Virus record (IMG/VR): IMGVR_UViG_2516143071_000007
DNA length: 37,657 nucleotides
From: a virus
Taxonomy: Duplodnaviria > Heunggongvirae > Uroviricota > Caudoviricetes
Strand: one strand, 5' to 3'
The notes below the pieces were generated by a model, which did no database searches, had not been told where the DNA came from, and saw only the letters and a program-made list of their open reading frames with translations. Below are positions 4,457 to 27,364 of the stretch, in pieces; position 1 is the stretch's first letter, and each line of letters opens with the position of its first letter. The translations under genes were made by a program, and so were the position numbers.

Positions 4457-4559
4457 GAAACCAGAACATGCACACACAAAAAAACCGCTTGCCATGCCGC
4501 AATCAGTCAGGTTACATTTCCGCTGCACCTCATAAAACGGGTGCCGGGATTTCCACCCC

Positions 4560-4770
4560 GCTGACTATACACGCGCACAACCGCGCCAGCGGTTTTTTTG
4601 TGCGTACCGCATCGCCACGTCTTTTTCGCACACGAATTATGGTGGGGCGTATGGGGCCGACTTTGGTCGGGCCGGGTTCGTGTATAGCCGGTTGTGGAAA
4701 CCCTGTACGTCTCACCACCCCGAGTTTTCCACCTCTGGATGGTGAGTTTTCAAAACTTACTATACACGAG
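4560..4770. promoter_or_regulatory. Three copies of CTATACACG in a 320-bp noncoding gap upstream of the replication operon
   Basis: ACTATACACG at 4564-4573 and 4759-4768 (plus), CTATACACG inverted at 4679-4687; no plausible ORF with a ribosome-binding site in the gap. Confidence 0.4.
4579..4600 (+). terminator. Rho-independent terminator candidate
   Basis: AACCGC-GCCA-GCGGTT stem-loop followed by TTTTTTT. Confidence 0.5.
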
Positions 4771-5081: not shown

Positions 5082-5471
5082 ATGATTGACGCTCATGACT
5101 TCACAAGATGGGTGCGCACACAGGACACCCGTCTGGCTCCCGTTCTTCAGGGGTTATTTGATCTCTACATCCGTGGTCGTGACAACAGAGCACGCACCAC
5201 AAAACCGGAGAATGCAGACACCCTTTATTTCACAGTAGACGACTGCTACCGCGTGGACTTCACACCACACGGACTGGCGTTGCACTGCCTGACACCGCAC
5301 GGCGAATCACTGCTGGCGTATTACGACTCCCCGGCCTCCGTATTTGCAGCAATGCTGGCGCATCGCACTGCTGGCGGGTGTGCCTCGCTGAGTGAATACA
5401 CCGCTGAATTTAACCGCCTTTCCGCCCTCTTCTCGCAGGAGTGGCAGCGCGTGACGGGATACCAGCCATGA
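5082..5471 (+). CDS. Hypothetical protein, 129 aa, coupled to replication gene A (P2 B position)
   Basis: Stop overlaps A start in ATGA; no motif recognised. Confidence 0.5.
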   Translation: MIDAHDFTRWVRTQDTRLAPVLQGLFDLYIRGRDNRARTTKPENADTLYFTVDDCYRVDFTPHGLALHCLTPHGESLLAYYDSPASVFAAMLAHRTAGGCASLSEYTAEFNRLSALFSQEWQRVTGYQP

Positions 5472-8308
5472 GTGCGTTTGCATGGAGCTGGAATGAACCA
5501 CGACCAGCTATTGATCCGGCCAGATTTACGGAGCACAGGCAGGAAACTGAAACCGACCTGCAACGCGCCATCCGTTACTACCTTGAGGCGGACAAAAGGG
5601 CACAGGAAGAACAGGAAGCGAAGAAAGAAGCCTTTTTCGCACAATCCGCCATGGGTAAAAAACTCATGGCATCCCTTGAGGAAGCCGGACAGCGTGAGAA
5701 GCTGGCACAGAGCATCATCAGTAAGCGCCGGGCAACAGAACAAGACCCGGTAGCCCGTGCCTTTGCCACACTGAAGGCGCTTCCCGTTTATCTGCGAGAA
5801 CCTCTGAGCCGCCACCTCTCTTTCCTGCGCAAGAAGCAGGAAGCCGATCGTCAGAAAGGCAAAAAGAGCTGGCAGGCGGAACGCTATGCACGCGGAACCC
5901 TGCGCAAAATATTCGAACGTCTGGATCGCACTGACGGGCGCTGGCTGACACCTGGTTATCGCTCCCTTGCCGGACGCGAACGCCTGGACGATTTGCTTTA
6001 CCTGCCGCAGCTCAACAAACACCAGATACAGACGCTGGCCACCATGACGGCGGCGATGTTCAGCAGCACCTTCGAAAAACTCTGCGATGGCTTTGGCGCG
6101 ACCGATGGCGAGCTGACCATGGATGTAACGCTGAAGACGTATCAGATGCTGGCCCGCATGGCGTTACACCTGCACGCCATGCCTCCACATTATGACGCAC
6201 TGACAACAGACAAAGACCGGAGGAACGAACCAGACACGGAGCTGCTGCCGGGCGCAATCCTTCGCCTGACCTGTGCGGAATGGTGGAAACGCAAACTGTG
6301 GCTGTTACGTTGCGAGTGGAGAGAAGAACAACTCCGCGCCGCCTGTCTGGTTTCCAGAAAAACATCACCCTATCTGAGCCAGGACGCGTTAAGCGAGTTT
6401 CGCGCACAGCGCGAGAAAACACGCGATTTCCTGAAAAGTTTCATGCTGGAAAACGAAGACGGGTTCACGATTGATCTCGAGACAGTGTATTACGCGGGAG
6501 TAAGTAACCCGGTTCACCGTAAGGCAGAAATGATGGCCACCATGAAGGGACTGGAACTTCTGGCCGAAGCCCGTGGCGACAGAGCGGTGTTTCTGACTGT
6601 CACCTGCCCGTCAAAATACCACGCAACAACGGAGAACGGTCATCCGAACCCTAAATGGAACGGGGCCACCATGCGCGACTCCAGCGATTACCTGGTTAAC
6701 ACGTTTTTTGCGGCGGTCCGCAAAAAACTGAACCGCGACGGTCTGCGCTGGTATGGCATCCGCACGGTGGAGCCTCACCATGACGGCACTGTGCACTGGC
6801 ATATGATGGTCTTTGCTCATCCGGAAGAAATCGACAGCATCGTGGCCATCACCCGCGATATTGCCATTCAGGAAGACCGCCACGAGCTGGGCAATGATAT
6901 TACTCCGCGCTTTAAGGTGGAGTATGTCGACGGCTCAAAAGGCACACCAACCAGCTACATCGCCACCTACATCGGAAAGAACCTGGACAGCCGCGCCGTG
7001 GATGGCATCGACCCGAAAACGGGCAAGCCACGCGTTGACCACGAAACCGGAAAATCAATGGCCGAGAGCGTGGAACGCGCCATCGGCTGGGCGCGCCTTC
7101 ACCGGGTCCGCCAGTTCCAGTTCTTTGGTATCCCCTCCCGTCAGGTGTGGCGTGAACTGCGCCGCCTTGCCAGCCAGATGGCACGCAACCCGGAAGGCCC
7201 GCAACGGCTGAAGGATGACGCAATGGACGCGGTACTCGCTGCCGCTGATGCCGGATGTTTTGCCACCTACATTGAGAAACAGGGTGGCGTACTTGTTCCA
7301 CGCAAAGACTACCTGATTCGCACCGCCTACGACCTCGCAGATGAGCTGAACGATTACGGTGAACAGAGCGTACAGATTTACGGGATCTGGTCGCCGCTCA
7401 TTGGGGAGTCTTCCCGCGTATGCACGCATCCGGATAACTGGAAGCTGGTAAGACGCAAACCGGAAGCGGAAGACAGCGCCCGCGAAAATGGTTTTGACCT
7501 TCAGGGCGGCCCTGCCGCCCCTTGGACTCGTGGCAATAACTGTCCCCGTGTACAGGAAACGGACAACAACGGGACAGAACAGCCGGAAGAACGGCCAGCA
7601 CCGTGGCCGCAGCTCCCTGACGGCGTTGATGTGGATGAATGGATGCGCTCACTGAAACGGCACGAACGCCGGGCGCTGATGCGTTCGCTTCGTGACAAAC
7701 AGGCAAAAAACAGCAGTGATGAAATGCAGAGCTGGACACAGAGCCGCAAACAGCAGCGGCCTTTGCCTGATAACCACGAATTACTCGCTAAAGAATGGCG
7801 GGAGTCTGCTGAATCTCTCGGCCTGCATATCGGTGAACAACAGATGCAGCACCTGTTACGGGGCGGCAGTCTGTACGTTGACGGCAGCATCATTGCACCG
7901 CAGGGATTTGAAATTGTACGCAAACCGGATACCCGCCCGGACAGCCGAATCACGCAGCTCTGGCAGCGCCTGAGCCGTAATCATGGCGTAAGCAGCACGG
8001 AGATCCGCCATAACCCGGTCGCCAGCTATCTGACACAGCTGGGGGCATCAGACCCTGAAGCCGCCGCACGCCTGGCATCCACACTTCAGCAGGACCAGAA
8101 CACCATGAAAACACCCGTTACCGTGCTTTCTGACATGCTGCGCGCCATCCGCGACGCAGAGCACGCACAGAGAATCAGTGAAACCACTGAACGCGCCCGC
8201 CGCAAAGCAGACCTGCTGCGGGGTGGCCTGACCAGTGGAAACAAAAAACAGACAGAAACGGGACTCACGAATCCCGTAAATGAGCAAAAAACGCGCAGCG
8301 ATATATGA
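5468..8308 (+). CDS. A: Rolling-circle replication initiator/endonuclease, P2 gpA family
   Basis: HUH motif HWHMMVF and paired tyrosines YIATYIGKN; start at ATG overlapping upstream stop; long C-terminal extension relative to P2 A as I recall it. Confidence 0.85.
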   Translation: MSAFAWSWNEPRPAIDPARFTEHRQETETDLQRAIRYYLEADKRAQEEQEAKKEAFFAQSAMGKKLMASLEEAGQREKLAQSIISKRRATEQDPVARAFATLKALPVYLREPLSRHLSFLRKKQEADRQKGKKSWQAERYARGTLRKIFERLDRTDGRWLTPGYRSLAGRERLDDLLYLPQLNKHQIQTLATMTAAMFSSTFEKLCDGFGATDGELTMDVTLKTYQMLARMALHLHAMPPHYDALTTDKDRRNEPDTELLPGAILRLTCAEWWKRKLWLLRCEWREEQLRAACLVSRKTSPYLSQDALSEFRAQREKTRDFLKSFMLENEDGFTIDLETVYYAGVSNPVHRKAEMMATMKGLELLAEARGDRAVFLTVTCPSKYHATTENGHPNPKWNGATMRDSSDYLVNTFFAAVRKKLNRDGLRWYGIRTVEPHHDGTVHWHMMVFAHPEEIDSIVAITRDIAIQEDRHELGNDITPRFKVEYVDGSKGTPTSYIATYIGKNLDSRAVDGIDPKTGKPRVDHETGKSMAESVERAIGWARLHRVRQFQFFGIPSRQVWRELRRLASQMARNPEGPQRLKDDAMDAVLAAADAGCFATYIEKQGGVLVPRKDYLIRTAYDLADELNDYGEQSVQIYGIWSPLIGESSRVCTHPDNWKLVRRKPEAEDSARENGFDLQGGPAAPWTRGNNCPRVQETDNNGTEQPEERPAPWPQLPDGVDVDEWMRSLKRHERRALMRSLRDKQAKNSSDEMQSWTQSRKQQRPLPDNHELLAKEWRESAESLGLHIGEQQMQHLLRGGSLYVDGSIIAPQGFEIVRKPDTRPDSRITQLWQRLSRNHGVSSTEIRHNPVASYLTQLGASDPEAAARLASTLQQDQNTMKTPVTVLSDMLRAIRDAEHAQRISETTERARRKADLLRGGLTSGNKKQTETGLTNPVNEQKTRSDI

Positions 8309-8353
8309 AGCGCGCACAAAACAGGCAAAAACGGGATTTCAGAATCCCGTAAA
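8257..8353. repeat. Two 24-bp palindrome-containing direct repeats flanking the parM upstream region
   Basis: AAACGGGACTCACGAATCCCGTAAA (8257-8280, inside the 3' end of A) and AAACGGGATTTCAGAATCCCGTAAA (8329-8353); each carries ACGGGA-N7-TCCCGT. Confidence 0.6.
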
Positions 8354-8384
8354 CGATTAATTAATCAACATAAGGAAAAGCGAC

Positions 8385-9344
8385 ATGAAAATTTGTATCG
8401 ACGACGGCTCCACCAACATCAAGCTGGCATGGACTGAGAACGGCGAACGCCGCAACGCCATCAGCCCGAACAGCTTCAAGTCGGAATGGTCTGCGCCGTT
8501 CGGTGGCACGCAGCCCGCGAACTACATGCTTGATGGCGTGCGCTATGGTTTTGATCCGGTCAGCGATCGCTTTGTCCAGACGACCGACACGCAATACCAA
8601 TACAGCGATGTGAATGTCATTGCCATTCATCACGCGCTGGTCAAATCAGGCATCACACCACAGGAGGTGGATGTGGTTGTCACCCTGCCACTGAGCGAGT
8701 ATTTCGACACAAACGCACAGCCGGACATGACCAATATCAACCGCAAAAAAGCGAACGTTATGCGCCCGGTGGAGTACCAGAACGGCGAAGCATTCACTAT
8801 CCGTAACGTACGGGTTATGCCTGAATCCATTCCGGCTGGCTTTAAGGCACTGGCTGACATGAGTCCGTTTGAATCCCTGCTGATTGTGGATTTGGGCGGA
8901 ACCACGCTGGATGTGGCAAAGGTTCAGGGGCAACTGGCAGGTATCAGCCAGGTGTTTTGCGATCCACACGTAGGCGTTTCTCTGATGGCCGATGCCGTAC
9001 TGTCGGTGATGGCCACTAACGGTATGCGCACCAGTCACCACATCGCCAATACCATTATCGAACATCGCCATGATGAAGCCTGGCTGCGCCAGCACATCCA
9101 CAATGACGCGCATTACGCCAGCCTGATGGCGGTTATTCGTGAAAAGGAAGAAACACTGAAACAACGCGTGATCCGCGCGCTGGCGGGTTTTTCGGGTTAC
9201 GGGCGGGTGATGGTTGTCGGTGGTGGGACGGAGATTGTGGCACCCGCTATCCGCGAAGCCTGCGGAGTTAATGCGACTTTCATCGCGGACGGGGTGCCAC
9301 AGTTTGCTCTGGTTAATGGGCTGTACGCAATGGACAAGGAGTAA
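8385..9344 (+). CDS. parM: Actin-like segregation ATPase, ParM/StbA family
   Basis: N-terminal IDDGSTNIKL, SPNSF, YSDVNV, VMPESIPAG, DLGGTTLD, SGY..VMV(V/I)GGG blocks match my recollection of plasmid R1 ParM along the whole length. Confidence 0.8.
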   Translation: MKICIDDGSTNIKLAWTENGERRNAISPNSFKSEWSAPFGGTQPANYMLDGVRYGFDPVSDRFVQTTDTQYQYSDVNVIAIHHALVKSGITPQEVDVVVTLPLSEYFDTNAQPDMTNINRKKANVMRPVEYQNGEAFTIRNVRVMPESIPAGFKALADMSPFESLLIVDLGGTTLDVAKVQGQLAGISQVFCDPHVGVSLMADAVLSVMATNGMRTSHHIANTIIEHRHDEAWLRQHIHNDAHYASLMAVIREKEETLKQRVIRALAGFSGYGRVMVVGGGTEIVAPAIREACGVNATFIADGVPQFALVNGLYAMDKE

Positions 9345-9348
9345 ACCA

Positions 9349-9663
9349 ATGACGACACCAACCAGACGGATAAGTTTCTATCTGAAGCCAGTCGCCGTCA
9401 ATAGTGAACGGGAGGCGTGTAATTACCTCGACAGCCTGCCAGCCTCTGAACGCAGCCGCGCGCAACGCGCGGCCTTTCTGGCCGGGCTGGCACTCATAAA
9501 ACGCGATCCTGCATTTGCCTATTGGTTGGCCGAATGGCCGGAAGAAGGAGCTGCGCCAGCCAAGAATAATATTCAGAGTAAATATGCCAGCGCACCTGCC
9601 ACCGGAAGCAATCACAGCACTAGCGAGATAAGAAAGAACATTCAGTCATTTTTCCCAGAGTGA
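9349..9663 (+). CDS. parR: ParR/StbB-like centromere-binding adaptor, about 104 aa
   Basis: Directly downstream of parM with AGGAG; N-terminal RRISFYLKP...LDSLP..ERSR..RAAFLAGLAL resembles R1 ParR ribbon-helix-helix N-terminus from memory. Confidence 0.6.
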   Translation: MTTPTRRISFYLKPVAVNSEREACNYLDSLPASERSRAQRAAFLAGLALIKRDPAFAYWLAEWPEEGAAPAKNNIQSKYASAPATGSNHSTSEIRKNIQSFFPE

Positions 9664-9682
9664 AAACAGGAGAGGAGCATCT

Positions 9683-10114
9683 ATGGCAACTATCCCCAAA
9701 AAATGGTTACAACGCAAAATTGCAGACCTTGAATCGTGTCGTGAAGACATCCCGTTTGGCCTTGATGAAAACGATCACAATATGTTAATCGCACTGAAAA
9801 TCGCACTCACATCGCTGGAAGCGAAACCTGTTGCATGGACTGATGATGAGGAACTGCGTGATGTCAAGCAGTATGGTTTCGGTGAGATATTTCAGTGTCC
9901 GCCAGATAAATACGCGGACCCGCGACGTGTTATCCCTATGTATCGAGAGCCGCCAGCGCCAGCAGTACCAGATGGACTGGTTAGAGCGGTGCGTTTCTAT
10001 GAACAGGTAAAGCGTGAGAATCCGCCAGTCGAAACTGGAGTATGGAAAGACGCTATTGACTGGGTGACCAAAGAGGCTTGCCAAGCTGTAGACATTGGCA
10101 TCAAAGGAGAGTGA
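9683..10114 (+). CDS. Hypothetical protein, 143 aa, in parMR operon
   Basis: AGGAGAGGAG Shine-Dalgarno; no motif recognised. Confidence 0.55.
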   Translation: MATIPKKWLQRKIADLESCREDIPFGLDENDHNMLIALKIALTSLEAKPVAWTDDEELRDVKQYGFGEIFQCPPDKYADPRRVIPMYREPPAPAVPDGLVRAVRFYEQVKRENPPVETGVWKDAIDWVTKEACQAVDIGIKGE

Positions 10115-10115
10115 T

Positions 10116-10379
10116 ATGGCAACTTTGACAAAAAAAGAACAAGCATGGTTGAGCGAATTACAGGACGTTCTTGATCGCTGTCCATCACCGAAAAAAATTG
10201 GTTTTTACACCATTGGCGATAAAAGCATTTACCTGTATGACCTACGCCGCATGGATGAAATCATGGAGGCTCTTGATAATCGTTCGTCAATGGATTGGTG
10301 TGTTGCTGTCCATGATATGAATGCAGGGTTTGATGAAAAGATTTTGTTCCCCTCATCACTTGAAAGCACAGCAGGATAA
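10116..10379 (+). CDS. Hypothetical protein, about 87 aa, last gene of parMR operon
   Basis: AAAGGAGAG Shine-Dalgarno then ATG at 10116 directly after the upstream stop. Confidence 0.5.
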   Translation: MATLTKKEQAWLSELQDVLDRCPSPKKIGFYTIGDKSIYLYDLRRMDEIMEALDNRSSMDWCVAVHDMNAGFDEKILFPSSLESTAG

Positions 10380-10414
10380 GGACCCAGCCAATATACACAA
10401 CCTATAAAACACTA

Positions 10415-10440
10415 AAGCGCCTCAGGGGCGCTTTTTGTTT
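10415..10440 (+). terminator. Rho-independent terminator after the parMR operon
   Basis: AGCGCC-TCAGG-GGCGCT hairpin followed by TTTTTGTTT. Confidence 0.65.
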
Positions 10441-10466
10441 GCACAAAAGTGCACAAATTTGCACAA
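10441..10466. repeat. Three GCACAA motifs phased at 10-bp intervals
   Basis: GCACAA at 10441, 10451, 10461 in TTTGCACAAAAGTGCACAAATTTGCACAATTTTTTT. Confidence 0.6.
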
Positions 10467-10840
10467 TTTTTTTGAACGACTTTTTACCCTTCCGGCCCGC
10501 ATGGCGGCTGGATCCGTCAAGGATCCGTGCGTGCACAAAAAAACGCGCTTTTTCTACGCGCAGGTGACGGGGGAACAGCCCGCGCTTCAGGGGGTAAATA
10601 GCATCCCCTGAACGGTGTCGCAGAGATACAACAGAATGGCTGTATTTCTCACGCTGAGCGTGAAAAAGACGTGAGGGCTTTTGCTTTGATGGGGTGGCAG
10701 ATAAGGCCGTCAAAATCGCACTGAGGCGGCGAGAACATGCAGTCAGCGCAGTGGGATTGCGTAAGAGTCTGACCGTCGATGATGGCAATAAGCAGGAAAG
10801 CGTCGTGAAATTATCTGATTGATACAGGAGCTGGAGAGTC

Positions 10841-10863
10841 GGGGCATAAATTTTTTATGCCCC
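10841..10863 (-). terminator. Stem-loop downstream of Q
   Basis: GGGGCATAAA-TTT-TTTATGCCCC 10-bp stem 27 nt after the Q stop; A/T-rich centre, no external T-run. Confidence 0.4.
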
Positions 10864-10890
10864 GGCGAAGCAGCAGACAAGCGAAGCGCG

Positions 10891-11937
10891 TCAGGATGTG
10901 GGCTGGGTATCTAACAGTGCGTAAGGGTTAAAGCGGATCACCTCTTCGCCAAGCCAGTCATTGATGTGCTTCATGGCCTCCATGACGGGCATCAGCTCGT
11001 TAATTGCGTAAACCCGCGCGGCCTTCTCCACATCACCAAACGCACTTTTTTCGCCCGGCATCGCCCCCATCAGTTGCGGCGGAACGCGGTGCGCAGCCAG
11101 CACATCATCACGGGATGCCGCCTTAACATTCATAAACTCATCTTTTGCGGTGATCTGCTGGAACGGCAAAATTTGCACCCCCTCTTTGCCACCGTTGGGC
11201 GCATGAATGAGCACGTTTTTAAACGCACCACCACCACGTGCACCCTGTAGCGTTTCTTTCAGGGAGTCCATGCTTTCGCGGTTTACCTGCGCTGCACCGA
11301 TGTAGATGATGCACCCGGCGTGGGATCCGTTGTCGTAATACAGTTTTCTGAACATGTCCGCCGAATGAGACAGGCTGGCCGAGAGTAATGCGCCGAGATA
11401 TTCCGGCATGCCGTAGATTTCCTGGTTAATGTCAGGATTCATCAGGTGGCACACTTTGCCAGGGCGAAACTGAAACGCGTCCTTGCCATCCTGCACATAC
11501 CACCATGATTCAAGATCGCTTCCGCGTCGCATGTATTTCGCCAGGGCGTGCCGTAATTTAAGCGGTTCGCCGAGCATATTGCTTCGAAGCTCAAGGAATG
11601 CGTTACCGAACACAAACCAGTCCAGCGCCAGCGCCGAGAAATCCTGCCGGGAAAGCAGCGGGTGCGGGATGTAGCAACCGAGTAATACATTGCGCTTAAA
11701 GTAAAGCGCAGACTGATGCCAGGACGTTTGCCGGGCTGCTCTTGCCAGACCGTACCAGTCCACCGGGGTTTCATACCACCGCCCGTTATCAGCACAGTAC
11801 ATATTGTCCAGCAGGTCATGCCCGGTCAGGCGATAAGGACCATCAAATGTGAATGCACTGAGCGATGATTCTTTCCTGAGCGCATCAGCGAGATCAATGC
11901 GTGAACTCATGCGCACTTTTTTATTTTTTCTGCTCAT
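10891..11937 (-). CDS. Q: Portal protein, P2 gpQ family
   Basis: About 348 aa; start overlaps P stop as TGATG on the minus strand; P2 capsid-gene synteny. Confidence 0.85.
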   Translation of the reverse strand: MSRKNKKVRMSSRIDLADALRKESSLSAFTFDGPYRLTGHDLLDNMYCADNGRWYETPVDWYGLARAARQTSWHQSALYFKRNVLLGCYIPHPLLSRQDFSALALDWFVFGNAFLELRSNMLGEPLKLRHALAKYMRRGSDLESWWYVQDGKDAFQFRPGKVCHLMNPDINQEIYGMPEYLGALLSASLSHSADMFRKLYYDNGSHAGCIIYIGAAQVNRESMDSLKETLQGARGGGAFKNVLIHAPNGGKEGVQILPFQQITAKDEFMNVKAASRDDVLAAHRVPPQLMGAMPGEKSAFGDVEKAARVYAINELMPVMEAMKHINDWLGEEVIRFNPYALLDTQPTS

Positions 11938-18516: not shown

Positions 18517-18658
18517 CCCACCCACATGGGGAAACCTCGGAATATGGGGCGACCGCCTTCTGGATGCACTGGAAACCTGTAACGCGGATAAACGGGCCAT
18601 TGCTGAACTGGATAAGAGAATAGCCGAACTGACACACCAGACGGGAGTAACACAATGA
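18377..18658 (+). CDS. o-spanin, Rz1 / P2 LysC-like lipoprotein
   Basis: Starts in the +1 frame inside Rz; signal MNAPTLCLTLVLLTGCAG with LTGC lipobox; Pro-rich; extends past the Rz stop. Confidence 0.65.
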   Translation: MNAPTLCLTLVLLTGCAGTQNAPGPAPSVRLIPQTLTMPVTPPPFPDPPTWGNLGIWGDRLLDALETCNADKRAIAELDKRIAELTHQTGVTQ

Positions 18659-20535
18659 CCAGTAAGAACTTTGCACTGATTACAGCCATGACACAGGCTG
18701 AACTGACTCAAAAGGTGAATGAACATCTTGCGAAAGGGTGGCATCTTCAGGGGGAGACGCGGGTTGCCTACGAACCCGGCACCCCGTGGTATCTAATGCA
18801 GGCAATGGTGGCCGATGGCACTACAGACATCTCACCTGATTCCCCCCAGCACGGCAGCGTGCCGGAGTGGTATTACGTGGTGGTACTTGCTGGTCAATCC
18901 AATGCCATGTCATATGGTGATGGAATGCCGCTGCCGGATTCTTACGATGCGCCCCACCCACGCATTAAGCAACTGGCCCGTCGCAACACAGTGACTCCCG
19001 GTGGTAAAGCATGCGCATTTAACGACATCATTCCGGCAGACCACTGCCTGCATGATGTTCAGGATATGAGCGCACTGAATCATCCGAAGGCAGACCTGAG
19101 CAAAGGGCAGTACGGCTGTGTCGGCCAGGGCTTACATATTGCCAAAAAACTGCTTCCGTATATCCCGAATAACGCGGGGATCCTGCTGGTACCATGCTGT
19201 CGTGGTGGTTCGGCATTCACCCAGGGCGCGGAGGGGACATTCAGTGCGGACACGGGGGCCAGCCAGGATTCGGCACGCTGGGGTGTGGGTAAACCGTTAT
19301 ATCAGGACCTGATCGCACGCACCAAAGCGGCATTACAGAAGAACCCGAAAAATGTGTTGCTGGCGGTGTGCTGGATGCAGGGCGAATTTGACATGAGCGC
19401 TGCCACCTACGCACAGCAACCGGACCTGTTCACGGCCATGCTGAAGCAGTTCCGTACTGACCTTTCCGGATTTAACGCGCAGTGCCATGGCGGCAGTGCT
19501 GCAGTTGTACCGTGGATTTGTGGCGACACGACATATTACTGGAAAAACACATACGGCACACAGTATGACTCCGTCTACGGCGCGTACAAAAACAGGGAGA
19601 GCGACAACGTTTTCTTTGTGCCGTTCATGACCGACGGTAACGGCAACAACACGCCCACCAACTTACCGGCAGAAGACCCGGATATTGCTGATGCAGGTTA
19701 TTACGGCGCGCAATCCCGTAGTAATGGTAATTGGGTATCGTCAAATCGTCCGACACATTTCAGTTCATGGGCGCGCAGGGGCATTATTTCGGATCGCCTG
19801 GCAACCGCTATTCTGAACGCAGTTGGTCGAACCAGCGCCTTCATCAGCGGTACCGCACCGGAGATTAAACCCTCGCCCGGCGGCGACACTCCATCGGGGC
19901 CGTCTGATGGTGACACATCCGTTCGTACAGTCTCCCTGCTGCCGACAGCCGGAGAGGCTGCTGCGCAGGGCTGGACCATCACCGGCGGCAGTGTTGCGCT
20001 GGAAGATGGTGTGTTTAAGGTTACCAAGCAGAGCAATAAAACCTGGTCCCTGATGCATCCGGTGGATGACGCAGTCTCCCTGCTGACACGGGGTGGCAGA
20101 CTGAGCTGTAAGTTTCGACTGTCAGGCGCACTGACCAACAACCAGTTCGGTCTGGGAATTTATCTGTATACCGATGTAGCGTTACCTGACGTCGTGGCGA
20201 TGACCGGGACTGGTAACCCGTTCCTGATGTCGTTCTTCACCCAGACCACAGACGGCAAACTGAATCTGATGCATCACAAGAAAGCCGGAAACACAAAGTT
20301 GGGCGAGTTCGGGAATTACAGTAACGACTGGCAGACGCTGGAGCTGGTGTTCACCGCCGGCAGTGCCACGGTTACTCCGAAACTGAATGGAGTGGCTGGC
20401 CCGGCATTCCAGGTCATAAAAGACAGTCTGACACTGGGGCTGAATGCGCTGACGTTAACTGATATCACTAAAAATGCCGCGTACGGCGTCGATATCGGCA
20501 GCCTGGTGCTGGAAATCAATAATCCCGCAGCATAA
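18655..20535 (+). CDS. NanS-p-like sialate O-acetylesterase (DUF1737 N-domain, SGNH/SASA esterase core, C-terminal lectin-like domain)
   Basis: AGQSNAMSYG matches the GQSNM catalytic-serine motif of the sialate O-acetylesterase family; N-terminus resembles DUF1737; ATGA coupling to Rz1 stop. Confidence 0.65.
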   Translation: MTSKNFALITAMTQAELTQKVNEHLAKGWHLQGETRVAYEPGTPWYLMQAMVADGTTDISPDSPQHGSVPEWYYVVVLAGQSNAMSYGDGMPLPDSYDAPHPRIKQLARRNTVTPGGKACAFNDIIPADHCLHDVQDMSALNHPKADLSKGQYGCVGQGLHIAKKLLPYIPNNAGILLVPCCRGGSAFTQGAEGTFSADTGASQDSARWGVGKPLYQDLIARTKAALQKNPKNVLLAVCWMQGEFDMSAATYAQQPDLFTAMLKQFRTDLSGFNAQCHGGSAAVVPWICGDTTYYWKNTYGTQYDSVYGAYKNRESDNVFFVPFMTDGNGNNTPTNLPAEDPDIADAGYYGAQSRSNGNWVSSNRPTHFSSWARRGIISDRLATAILNAVGRTSAFISGTAPEIKPSPGGDTPSGPSDGDTSVRTVSLLPTAGEAAAQGWTITGGSVALEDGVFKVTKQSNKTWSLMHPVDDAVSLLTRGGRLSCKFRLSGALTNNQFGLGIYLYTDVALPDVVAMTGTGNPFLMSFFTQTTDGKLNLMHHKKAGNTKLGEFGNYSNDWQTLELVFTAGSATVTPKLNGVAGPAFQVIKDSLTLGLNALTLTDITKNAAYGVDIGSLVLEINNPAA

Positions 20536-26137: not shown

Positions 26138-26715
26138 TGACATTCAGAATGAGTGAACAATCACGGACCATAAAAATTTATAATCTACTGGCTGGAACCA
26201 ATGAGTTTATTGGTGAAGGTGATGCATACATTCCACCTCATACAGGTCTGCCTGCAAACAGTACCGATATTGCCCCGCCAGATATTCCGGCTGGCTTCGT
26301 GGCCGTTTTCAACAGTGATGAGGCATCGTGGAATCTCGTTGAAGACCATCGGGGAAAAACCGTCTATGACGTGGCTTCCGGCGACGCGTTATTTATTTCT
26401 GAACTTGGCCCATTACCGGAAAATGTCACCTGGTTATCCCCGGAAGGGGAGTTTCAGAAGTGGAACGGCACAGCCTGGGTGAAAGATGCAGAAGCAGAAA
26501 AACTGTTCCGGATCCGGAAGGCGGAAGAAACAAAAAACAGCCTGATGCAGATGGCCAGTGAGCATATTGCGCCACTTCAGGATGCCGTAGATTTGGATAT
26601 TGCGACGGAGGAAGAGGCATCGTTACTGACTGCATGGAAGACATATCGGGTATTGTTGAATCGTGTTGATACAACAGTAGCATCGGATGTTGAGTGGCCA
26701 GTCGCCCCGCAATAA
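26137..26715 (+). CDS. G: Tail fibre assembly chaperone, P2 gpG / Tfa family
   Basis: Follows H with TAATG overlap; 192 aa; Tfa-like N-terminus ([30 protein letters not shown]). Confidence 0.8.
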
Positions 26716-26758
26716 AAGGATAAAGCCATCGATAGAAATATTGATGGCTTCATGTACT

Positions 26759-27364
26759 CTATTTATACAATACAACACCGCTCTTTTTTGTTATATATGT
26801 GCAGTTCGATGGTATATCTTTATTTATAAAAGACATTGCACCTATTTTTACATTATCCCCAATTTTACGTGATAATCCAATGATGCAACAATTGGCTCCG
26901 ATATCAACGTTATTACCAATTTTTACTCTTGAACCAGGCATGTCACCATCTATCTGTCCAATGGTAGTATTCTGTCGTAACACCAGATTTTCACCAGCAT
27001 CAACAGCAAAATGAACAACAATTCCAGCATGATGGGGAATTGTTAACCCTTTTCCAATATTTGCGCCCAATCCAATTTCACAACCAAATTTGTTAATTAT
27101 TTTACCGTTTAACTTTTTGGCTGCTTTCTTATGTAATTTATTACCATTAATATACATTTCGTTAGCCAACCGCCACCAGAAAAGGAAATTCCGGTTACGC
27201 TGTTTTTTCTCTCTTAAAAGCCTCCAGATATCCATACGTTTCCGCCGAATTACTTCATATTTCCAGAAGTTTTTTAAATTAGTAGAGTCCCCAAATAAAA
27301 CAAAGTGAATTGCCATTAAGTAAGACAGCACGATAATCTCCTTAATTATTATTTCAGACCACAC
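26759..27364 (-). CDS. Hexapeptide-repeat (left-handed beta-helix) O-acetyltransferase, CysE/WcaB-like; AT-rich cargo
   Basis: IGxxxxIG hexapeptide repeats (IGLGANIGKGLTIPHHAGIVV..., IGNNVDIGANCCIIG, IGDNVKIGAMS); start uncertain (27364 or internal ATG 27316); strongly AT-rich. Confidence 0.65.
   Translation of the reverse strand: MWSEIIIKEIIVLSYLMAIHFVLFGDSTNLKNFWKYEVIRRKRMDIWRLLREKKQRNRNFLFWWRLANEMYINGNKLHKKAAKKLNGKIINKFGCEIGLGANIGKGLTIPHHAGIVVHFAVDAGENLVLRQNTTIGQIDGDMPGSRVKIGNNVDIGANCCIIGLSRKIGDNVKIGAMSFINKDIPSNCTYITKKSGVVLYK

Follow-up and report, generated by a model that had tools for sequence, protein, structure and literature searches.

An intact ParM/ParR cassette behind the replication gene of a P88-like prophage and its likely role in partition of phage DNA outside the chromosome

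Roughly every fourth complete E. coli genome, strains of O104:H4 and O157:H7 among them, contains a prophage from an integrating lineage that keeps a machine for plasmid segregation, and purifying selection on this machine is strong. Why does the lineage keep it? The puzzle is posed by four open reading frames, all on the plus strand, spanning positions 8385-10379 of the window, that is, the whole stretch of viral DNA of 37,657 nucleotides which was analysed. The host element is P88-like (Xuanwuvirus), a P2-like integrating prophage with btuC and ihfA flanking it on the chromosome and with its integrase gene retained. The stretch carrying the cassette recurs, letter for letter, in E. coli O104:H4. 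The features of the locus are as follows.

5' of parM, plus strand: replication gene A, a 955-aa ORF with a Pfam Phage_GPA domain
8242-8283: repeat copy 1, 42 nt, within the last codons of gene A; palindrome ACGGGACTCACGAATCCCGT at 8258-8277
8315-8356: repeat copy 2, 42 nt, in the gap between gene A and parM; palindrome ACGGGATTTCAGAATCCCGT at 8331-8350
8385-9344, plus strand: parM, 319 aa, actin-fold segregation ATPase (Pfam, alignment with R1 ParM, phrog_691)
9349-9663, plus strand: parR/stbB, 104 aa from the ATG, ParR-family adaptor (PF10784)
9683-10114, plus strand: gene 3, 143 aa, modular helical phage accessory protein (phrog_660)
10116-10379, plus strand: gene 4, 87 aa, small alpha/beta phage protein (phrog_1714)
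10414-10434: intrinsic terminator, 9-bp stem and T-run, closing the four-gene unit

The first-pass annotation had described a four-gene, plus-strand unit closed by a terminator and lying between gene A and cos/portal Q, and this layout was borne out. The Phage_GPA ORF is upstream and the minus-strand portal and terminase genes lie 3' of the cassette, with the cos cohesive-end region placed at ~10562-10581 by alignment with the right end of P2. The stem-loop and T-run at 10414-10434 score as a terminator on the minus strand too.

Gene 1 had been called ParM-like over its full length, and homology searches confirmed the 319-aa protein as a member of the ParM family. It matches the Pfam domains StbA_N (2.9e-82) and ParM C-terminal domain (5.6e-68), and residues 2-316 align with residues 2-318 of the R1 ParM structure 1mwk at 46% identity (E 3e-92). 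In R1 ParM, DDGSTNIK forms phosphate motif 1, a glutamate is catalytic, DLGGTTLD forms phosphate motif 2 and GGG contacts the adenosine. The corresponding IDDGSTNIK, PESIPAG (E147), DLGGTTLD (D169) and GGG of the phage protein align identically or conservatively with these. The parM product is a full-length homologue of R1 ParM and, as read from the alignment, its nucleotide-binding motifs are intact. Strong purifying selection acts on the gene (dN/dS 0.054, 71 distinct alleles).

The start of parR is 4 bp past the parM stop codon; the mechanical ORF begins at a TTG at 9214, and the length of 104 aa is counted from the ATG. The resemblance to ParR that had been noted at the N-terminus of gene 2 was upheld by a match to Pfam Plasmid_stab_B (PF10784, 8.7e-25) and by a weak alignment of residues 6-61 with the N-terminus of pB171 ParR (2jd3, E 0.005). 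Across the compared sequences the DNA-reading N-terminal strand, RRISFYLKP, and the helices are invariant, residues 66-95 form a hypervariable linker, and after this linker a C-terminal tail, (K)xNIxxxFPE, is conserved in 25 diverged ParR sequences. A conserved tail following a variable linker is the pattern expected of a ParM-binding C-terminal peptide, and the tail may be one; it presumably resembles the tail of R1 ParR. Like parM, parR is under purifying selection. A homologue search for plasmid relatives sharing the DNA-reading strand returned only the Escherichia/Shigella/Salmonella lineage, at 50-98% identity.

The cassette is already known in that RefSeq names the ParM and ParR proteins and the literature mentions a partition system: Rousset et al. 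2022 state that such a putative plasmid partitioning system occurs in some one in four P2-like phages, and their table includes exactly these four protein accessions (PMC9122126). With these records, and with the experimental precedents of srpMRC and of AlpAC in prophage CGP3, a segregation machine in such a phage can no longer be called unexpected, as it had been at first. No experiments on this cassette were found in the literature searched, and the EHEC transcriptome and proteome papers with their supplements contained nothing on the cassette genes.

The closest well-described relative is the parMRC (parA/stbAB) system of plasmids R1 and R100. The two share the order of parM then parR, the same protein families with ParM identity extending over the full length, the Plasmid_stab_B N-terminal domain, a short conserved ParR tail and a cis site, here a candidate one, directly upstream of parM. 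What sets the present cassette apart from the plasmid system is its host, a P2-like phage that integrates, its fusion to the 3' end of gene A, and its upstream region, which has a pair of 20-bp palindromes at a spacing of 73 bp and in which the scan found no promoter-like site. The parC of R1 consists of ten 11-bp direct repeats arrayed around the promoter.

We put a probability of roughly 0.55 on the reading that the locus is a genuine and intact type II (ParM/ParR) partition cassette which segregates circular phage DNA while this is outside the chromosome. ParR would bind the upstream palindromes, and ParM filaments capped by ParR would push copies of the circular phage genome apart. A simple consensus scan found no promoter-like sites on the plus strand between 8000 and 10900, and a scan for plus-strand terminators found none in the 76 bp that separate gene A from parM; thus the cassette looks like an extension of the early replication operon, and would be transcribed as its tail (cox...A-parM-parR). 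If the early-operon reading is right, production of ParM and ParR would be confined to times at which the phage is derepressed and has its DNA outside the chromosome. The cassette would then act either after infection and before integration or after excision, and would lower the loss of the non-integrated genome at cell division, much as srpMRC does in the SXT/R391 ICEs. It would not maintain a permanent plasmid prophage, and genes 3 and 4 would be unrelated, exchangeable cargo of the early operon.

The srpMRC locus is an actin-type partition system in a normally integrated element; its centromere, which precedes the M gene, is made up of four short repeats, direct and inverted, the system is expressed only upon activation of the element, and it stabilises the excised circle as well as a test plasmid kept at single copy (Carraro et al. 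2015, PMC4489591). It differs from the present case in its proteins, SrpM being only a distant relative of ParM and SrpR showing no homology to any known ParR, whereas the phage proteins are clear members of both families, and in its host, which is an ICE while the host here is a phage, for which the partition function is a prediction. Should the cassette stabilise the non-integrated genome, then the ICE precedent would be extended to tailed phages, and there would be consequences for how efficiently lysogens form, how often the prophage is lost and how the adjacent cargo genes spread. A broader proposal, which we hold only tentatively and at clearly less than even odds, is that ParMRC gives an integrating rolling-circle phage a short-lived heritable extrachromosomal state, or organises its replicating DNA, by means of a minimal two-palindrome centromere in the end of the replication gene. 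If this were true, P88-like phages would be a natural bridge from integrating prophages to phage-plasmids, and the near-invariance of ParM set against the high diversity of ParR could reflect selection against cross-talk between co-resident prophages.

The same proximity to gene A is also what would be expected if ParM and ParR served the lytic cycle, positioning or spreading replicating genomes and so raising the efficiency of replication or packaging. With parM 76 bp after gene A and neither a plus-strand terminator nor a promoter-like site between them, co-expression with the replication genes is likely. A precedent exists in prophage CGP3 of Corynebacterium glutamicum, where the actin-like protein AlpC and the DNA-binding adaptor AlpA, with alpS, act on phage DNA and are needed for efficient viral DNA replication and transport rather than for inheritance (PMC4446434, PMC5539076). 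However, AlpC belongs, by its description, to another actin-like family in another host phylum, and the phage ParM is a close structural homologue of the plasmid-segregating ParM proteins of R1 and D6, not of AlpC. Furthermore, this prophage also has a Hok/Gef gene, which is homologous to plasmid R1's other stability locus and suggests a theme of stability, and the cassette is absent from P2 and from some P88-type phages, so it is not essential. We regard a lytic role as unlikely, though of the alternatives it is the most probable.

The palindrome pair is the best candidate for a centromere or operator (parC-like), at which ParR would bind. The two 42-nt repeat copies are 81% identical and 73 bp apart, and their 20-bp palindromes together provide four half-sites of the type wwwACGGGAyT. 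The palindrome pattern occurs at these two sites and at no others in the window, with 0.10 matches expected by chance, and the palindromes are kept in nearly all related loci examined (52 distinct upstream sequences). In strain JNE181771 the P88-type phage has neither the palindromes nor parMR, and its homology ends at about window position 8196: the palindromes are gained and lost together with parMR. The candidate cis site holds only two operator-like sites, which counts against the main explanation. No array of 10-11-bp repeats was found upstream of parM, and several copies of 10-16-nt motifs precede parM in the IncL/M plasmid pKPC-edb7 and in phage D6, unlike the present palindromes. No correlation was found between the allelic type of ParR and the palindrome variant.

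On the minus strand each palindrome reads as an 8-bp stem followed by a T-rich run, both are terminator-like in the scan, and the T-rich tail is taken into the 42-nt repeat. The palindromes might thus be tandem leftward (minus-strand) terminators or an RNA element, with the real site of ParR lying elsewhere or lost. No compensatory changes were seen in the 16 pairs among the 52 distinct sequences, though, and the substitutions seen commonly (A>G at the first position, C>T in palindrome 2's right arm) would yield A-C mismatches on the minus strand. A hairpin or terminator is therefore without positive support from covariation. Because the terminator at 10414-10434 scores on both strands, nothing obvious needs termination upstream of parM, and no other repeat family was found near the cassette genes. 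We regard this explanation as improbable.

A second set of repeats was considered as the centromere and rejected. The 10-bp TGCACAA repeats (10439-10470 and 10531-10540) belong to the cos-proximal block of all P88-like phages, and they occur also in Enterobacter phage phiT5282H, which lacks ParM, and loosely in the right end of P2.

The distribution of the cassette bears on whether phage DNA is kept outside the chromosome for good. It is present in 1303 of the 5426 complete E. coli genomes, with 1441 chromosomal placements against 2 on plasmids, one of these being a 438-kb replicon. The parMR genes are nearly fixed in the P88-like lineage. The idea that they are fixed phage backbone and not hotspot cargo had to be softened, as there is a P88-type phage that has, in place of parMR, genes for an AAA ATPase and an S8 peptidase behind gene A. 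A single circular record, pZ1323PEC0009-2 (34,461 bp), is a P88-like genome in its entirety, int, parMR and hok included. In a phage collection of 50,697 records, the sole phage outside the Xuanwuvirus group with this ParM family is D6, a P1-like plasmid prophage of 91 kb; its StbA-type ParM is 47.5% identical and is followed by a Plasmid_stab_B ParR, but TCTCA-containing repeats precede its parM and such palindromes are missing. The Hok/Gef gene, the related ParM of D6 and the circular record are cited in favour of a segregation role, and the nearly constant integration of the element and the fact that P2 and some P88-type phages do without the cassette are cited against it.

Episomal persistence had been suggested at the outset, and a stable low-copy plasmid prophage, or phage-plasmid, is an idea raised in passing by Rousset et al. 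2022 (PMC9122126) with which the circular record and the related ParM of D6 agree. The chromosomal excess given above leaves that suggestion poorly supported. The integrase is kept, the prophage sits integrated between btuC and ihfA, and the integrase type of the circular record itself is chromosomal in all 308 genomes that bear it. The replication protein, moreover, is a P2-type gene A endonuclease, a rolling-circle initiator that is not known to support plasmid maintenance. Type II partition systems are expected on low-copy plasmids, and the present cassette is overwhelmingly chromosomal. A plasmid life style is thus very unlikely, and transient partition of the circular phage DNA is the form of the segregation reading that we prefer.

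The two remaining genes appear to be separate from the partition machine. They had been said to have no recognisable motifs, which stands in so far as neither has a Pfam, NCBIfam or PADLOC match, but not entirely, since gene 3 belongs to phrog_660 and gene 4 to phrog_1714, both phage families without assigned function. Nor are they plasmid genes; both are mosaic accessory genes common to lambdoid phages. The gene 3 family, found in 15 of 38 complete loci, is mosaic with the Ead/Ea22-like and DUF551 proteins of lambdoid prophages. Some homologues sharing its modules carry PF13935 or PF04448; gene 3 itself fails the Pfam test for both and is thus a mosaic relative and not a member. Its AlphaFold model is helical and weak (pLDDT 67). 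The gene 4 model is alpha/beta with a pLDDT of 86.7; a structure search with it gave no analogue of known function, and its relatives occur in prophages across Enterobacterales. In lambdoid phages the annotated neighbours of relatives of genes 3 and 4 are Ead/Ea22, EaA and DUF551 proteins. In lambda, the Ea22/EaA region belongs to the early lytic genes. We read genes 3 and 4 as exchangeable accessory cargo.

The slot from gene A to cos/portal Q is the one that holds old and tin in P2 and hosts many proven defence systems in P2-like phages (arrangement and table in PMC9122126), and the first-pass annotation had accordingly raised co-option for defence or exclusion. That the cassette or the whole four-gene unit is a lysogen-expressed defence, exclusion or plasmid-incompatibility module is nevertheless the least probable reading, and no support for it was found, defence-like gene pairs behind parR in sister loci notwithstanding. 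None of the four proteins matches PADLOC-DB (E up to 1), the scan detected no promoter-like site, and conservation of ParM, of the ParR tail and of the palindromes is as expected for an ordinary segregation function. Genes 3 and 4 are common to lambdoid phages with Ea22, Ead/Ea22-like and EaA neighbours. In P2, old and tin act in the lysogen, lie on the opposite strand and are transcribed from mapped starts of their own, whereas the present genes run in the direction of gene A and look like a continuation of the early operon.

The variable cargo slot begins within parR. In sister loci the cargo after parR includes pairs that by eye are defence-like, one a Fic/Doc-like protein with an antitoxin and another an ATPase with a small partner.

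A complete P2-like prophage makes up the window; among named phages it is closest to P88, Citrobacter rodentium PhiSM and further members of Xuanwuvirus (family Peduoviridae). Positions 8200-10500 are 100% identical to a chromosomal region in many E. coli O104:H4 genomes, where btuC and ihfA flank the prophage and its annotation runs from integrase to ogr. As the first-pass annotation had set out, the interval from replication gene A to the cos/portal region is occupied by four plus-strand ORFs (8385-10379) followed by a terminator. The features discussed are as follows.

5441-8308, plus strand: ORF, replication gene A (Pfam Phage_GPA, 3e-130)
8242-8283: 42-nt repeat, copy 1, within the last codons of gene A
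8315-8356: 42-nt repeat, copy 2, directly 5' of parM
8385-9344, plus strand: ORF, gene 1, parM
9349-9663, plus strand: ORF, gene 2, parR
9683-10114, plus strand: ORF, gene 3
10116-10379, plus strand: ORF, gene 4
10414-10434: terminator, stem-loop with T-run, closing the four-ORF unit
37517-37657, plus strand: Hok/Gef gene, 46 aa (Pfam HOK_GEF, 4e-7)

Gene 1 matches Pfam along its full length (StbA_N, 2.9e-82; ParM C-terminal domain, 5.6e-68) and falls in phrog_691, 'partition protein'. In a search against solved structures its residues 2-316 aligned on residues 2-318 of ParM from plasmid R1 (E 3e-92), with 46% identity, two single-residue gaps and the IDDGSTNIK, PESIPAG, DLGGTTLD and GGG motifs all kept. 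The ParM identity proposed in the first-pass annotation is thus borne out. The resemblance of the gene 2 N-terminus to ParR was also confirmed, by Pfam Plasmid_stab_B (8.7e-25; phrog_2515) and by alignment of residues 6-61 with the N-terminus of pB171 ParR (structure 2jd3, E 0.005). RefSeq names the two products 'plasmid segregation protein ParM' and 'plasmid partitioning/stability family protein'.

Across 83 loci with 71 distinct alleles, parM gave a mean dN of 0.0045 and a mean dS of 0.083, a ratio of 0.054, and the protein is 98-100% identical in 80 IMG/VR loci. ParR is much more varied, being 50-98% identical among loci with at least three allelic types. Little or nothing varies in its N-terminal strand RRISFYLKP, the next helices or the C-terminal tail (K)xNIxxxFPE, and residues 66-95 are hypervariable. 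In R1 ParR an N-terminal domain binds DNA and a flexible linker connects it to a tail that binds ParM, so the pattern of conservation matches the layout expected of a working ParR. The pair is intact and under selection, inside an integrating phage, and palindromic sites are inherited along with it. The contrast in diversity between ParM and ParR may reflect selection against cross-talk among co-resident prophages. Some genomes hold up to three copies of the cassette, and recombination break points are found inside parR (9349-9663 in the window; loci L002-L086 in the comparison).

The two 42-nt repeats upstream of parM are spaced by 73 bp and each contains a 20-bp palindrome, ACGGGAyT-N4-rAATCCCGT. 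The pattern has no further site in the window, where chance alone would give 0.10 matches, and almost every related locus keeps it, the most diverged one included. No variation of the palindromes with ParR allelic type was found, and this constancy fits the invariant N-terminal strand of ParR. E. coli JNE181771, in which homology to the window ends at ∼8196, lacks both palindromes as well as parMR. This joint absence, taken with the conservation elsewhere, places the palindromes in the cassette and puts its left edge within the 3' part of gene A. They are the best candidate for the centromere/operator. The IncL/M plasmid pKPC-edb7 and phage D6 differ in carrying several copies of repeated 10-16-nt motifs 5' of parM rather than two palindromes. 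Alternatively the palindromes could be minus-strand terminators, and the terminator scan does list both of them on that strand; a pair count over 52 distinct sequences found no compensatory change in the arms, and the common variants would disrupt minus-strand pairing.

One IMG/VR locus (L085, 3851-3975, corresponding to 8242-8356 in the window) retains only one 42-nt repeat, a hybrid of the two. Recombination between them seems to have removed the intervening 73 bp, with a change to the C-terminal tail of gene A. Three tandem 10-bp repeats, TGCACAAwww, at 10439-10470 and a fourth copy at 10531-10540 flank the cos region. They were considered as a centromere and rejected as part of the cos region: they are kept in P88-like phages and in phiT5282H, which lacks ParMR, and partly or loosely in P2. 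A role in packaging is probable for them.

A promoter scan of the plus strand over 8000-10900 gave no sigma-70-like site, and the terminator scan found no plus-strand terminator between gene A and parM. Thus the four genes are most simply read as the last genes of the early replication operon. All four run with gene A, unlike old and tin of P2, which lie on the other strand and have mapped transcript starts of their own.

The best-supported role for the cassette, on the analysis presented here, would be to lower the loss of the non-integrated phage genome at cell division. ParR would bind the palindromes and ParM filaments would drive circular copies of the phage genome apart. Expression from the early operon would confine partition to periods when the genome is outside the chromosome, and the outcome would be fewer losses of the genome at division, either after infection and before integration or after excision. 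A proven analogue for such stabilisation is srpMRC of the SXT/R391 ICEs (PMC4489591). The main rival is a role in lytic replication like that of AlpAC from prophage CGP3 of Corynebacterium glutamicum (PMC4446434, PMC5539076), which does not exclude one in inheritance.

Of 5426 complete E. coli genomes searched at a threshold of at least 90% DNA identity, 1303 had parM-parR, at 1441 chromosomal places but only 2 plasmid places. These counts make a permanent plasmid life style, one form of the episome suggested at first, unlikely. The companion suggestion that the cassette serves in defence or exclusion found no support. P88-type gene A occurs in 1442 genomes, so that gene A and parMR are tightly, though not absolutely, linked. 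In the phage collection this ParM family was confined to Xuanwuvirus phages and D6, a P1-like plasmid prophage (47.5% identity), and the nearest plasmid parM genes have ∼66% DNA identity. This is consistent with the cassette having been in the phage lineage for a long time and not captured recently. In PLSDB, the 34,461-bp circular 'plasmid' pZ1323PEC0009-2 (NZ_CP148288.1, locus L005), from E. coli isolated from a cat, amounts to an entire P88-like genome: int, cox, A, parMR, the structural genes, hok and genes for a Com-type regulator and a DNA methyltransferase are all present. The 308 genomes that have its integrase type all have it in the chromosome. Several very large 'plasmid' records of 227 kb to 1.4 Mb also hold the cassette.

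The A-to-Q locus was defined as a hotspot by Rousset et al. 2022 (PMC9122126), whose supplementary table lists the window's four proteins (WP_000686540, WP_000211292, WP_000201251 and WP_000224219) with one small hypothetical protein. The cassette and the main speculation of the first-pass annotation are therefore already published, and the annotation is already in RefSeq. No experimental test of the cassette was found in the literature searched. New here are its prevalence and chromosomal bias, the parM selection figures and the ParM/ParR contrast, the palindromes as a cassette-linked candidate centromere, the cargo boundary inside parR and the early-operon reading.

This boundary is seen where homology among relatives is lost, at positions 1017-1161 of a 1279-bp parMR query in which parR starts at 965; homology is regained at ∼10415-10440. 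Given these break points, the variable slot lies downstream of the ParR N-terminal domain. In 38 complete loci the cargo is 544-1945 bp, on either strand and in 52 ORF clusters, some resembling defence or toxin-antitoxin pairs when judged by eye. Gene 3 belongs to the commonest family (15 of the 38 loci). Its 821 homologues are all unnamed or 'hypothetical', and they form a mosaic family that has modules in common with Ead/Ea22-like and DUF551 proteins, a conserved LASLEAEPVAW segment marking the join; AlphaFold predicts a helical protein, but with low confidence (pLDDT 67). For gene 4, 139 homologues were found in prophages across many Enterobacterales, and a CPSP motif is conserved among them; lambdoid phages have the gene at 93-97% DNA identity, adjoining Ea22-like genes. 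Its model is confident (pLDDT 86.7), and a structure search with it found no analogue of known function. Neither gene matched Pfam, NCBIfam or PADLOC, in agreement with the earlier view that they have no recognisable motifs. Genes 3 and 4 are phage accessory genes and not plasmid genes, and nothing points to a tie with partition.

In the P88-type phage of JNE181771 (L092, 5633-8897) an AAA ATPase with a C-terminal HTH and an S8 peptidase replace parMR in the A-to-cos slot, and Enterobacter phage phiT5282H (L089) has the same pair in the same slot. This is a recurrent two-gene cargo and possibly a defence system.

The Hok/Gef gene adjoins ogr at the right prophage end, and the window stops at its last codon. 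No Sok-type RNA was found at the Rfam gathering score. The other stability locus of plasmid R1 is hok/sok; the phage thus holds homologues of both R1 stability loci, which fits the stability theme.

At 4525-4722 (plus strand) adjacent Rfam matches to isrK (63.5 bits) and C4 antisense RNA (76.5 bits) lie just 5' of a gene that RefSeq names 'derepression protein'. Together these form an antirepressor module of P1/P7 style, under antisense control, within a P2-like phage. An IS5-like (ISKpn26 family) transposase at 35851-36830 is split over several frames, whereas the RefSeq O104:H4 record has an intact 981-bp gene and coordinates shifted by 43 bp relative to the window; the split gene could be a decayed copy or the result of uncorrected assembly errors in a repeat. 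Two low-GC cargo islands were seen, one at 34422-35591 (minus strand), where gene D and the IS5 copy flank a DUF3800 gene (Pfam 3.5e-10), and the other at 26480-27364, 3' of the tail-fibre assembly gene, with a gene named serine O-acetyltransferase by RefSeq that adjoins an Rfam IS009 RNA match (192 bits). Finally, a 626-aa ORF at 18655-20535 (plus strand), a DUF6645 protein in RefSeq, lies between the lysis and tail genes, where P2-like late operons do not usually have a large gene.
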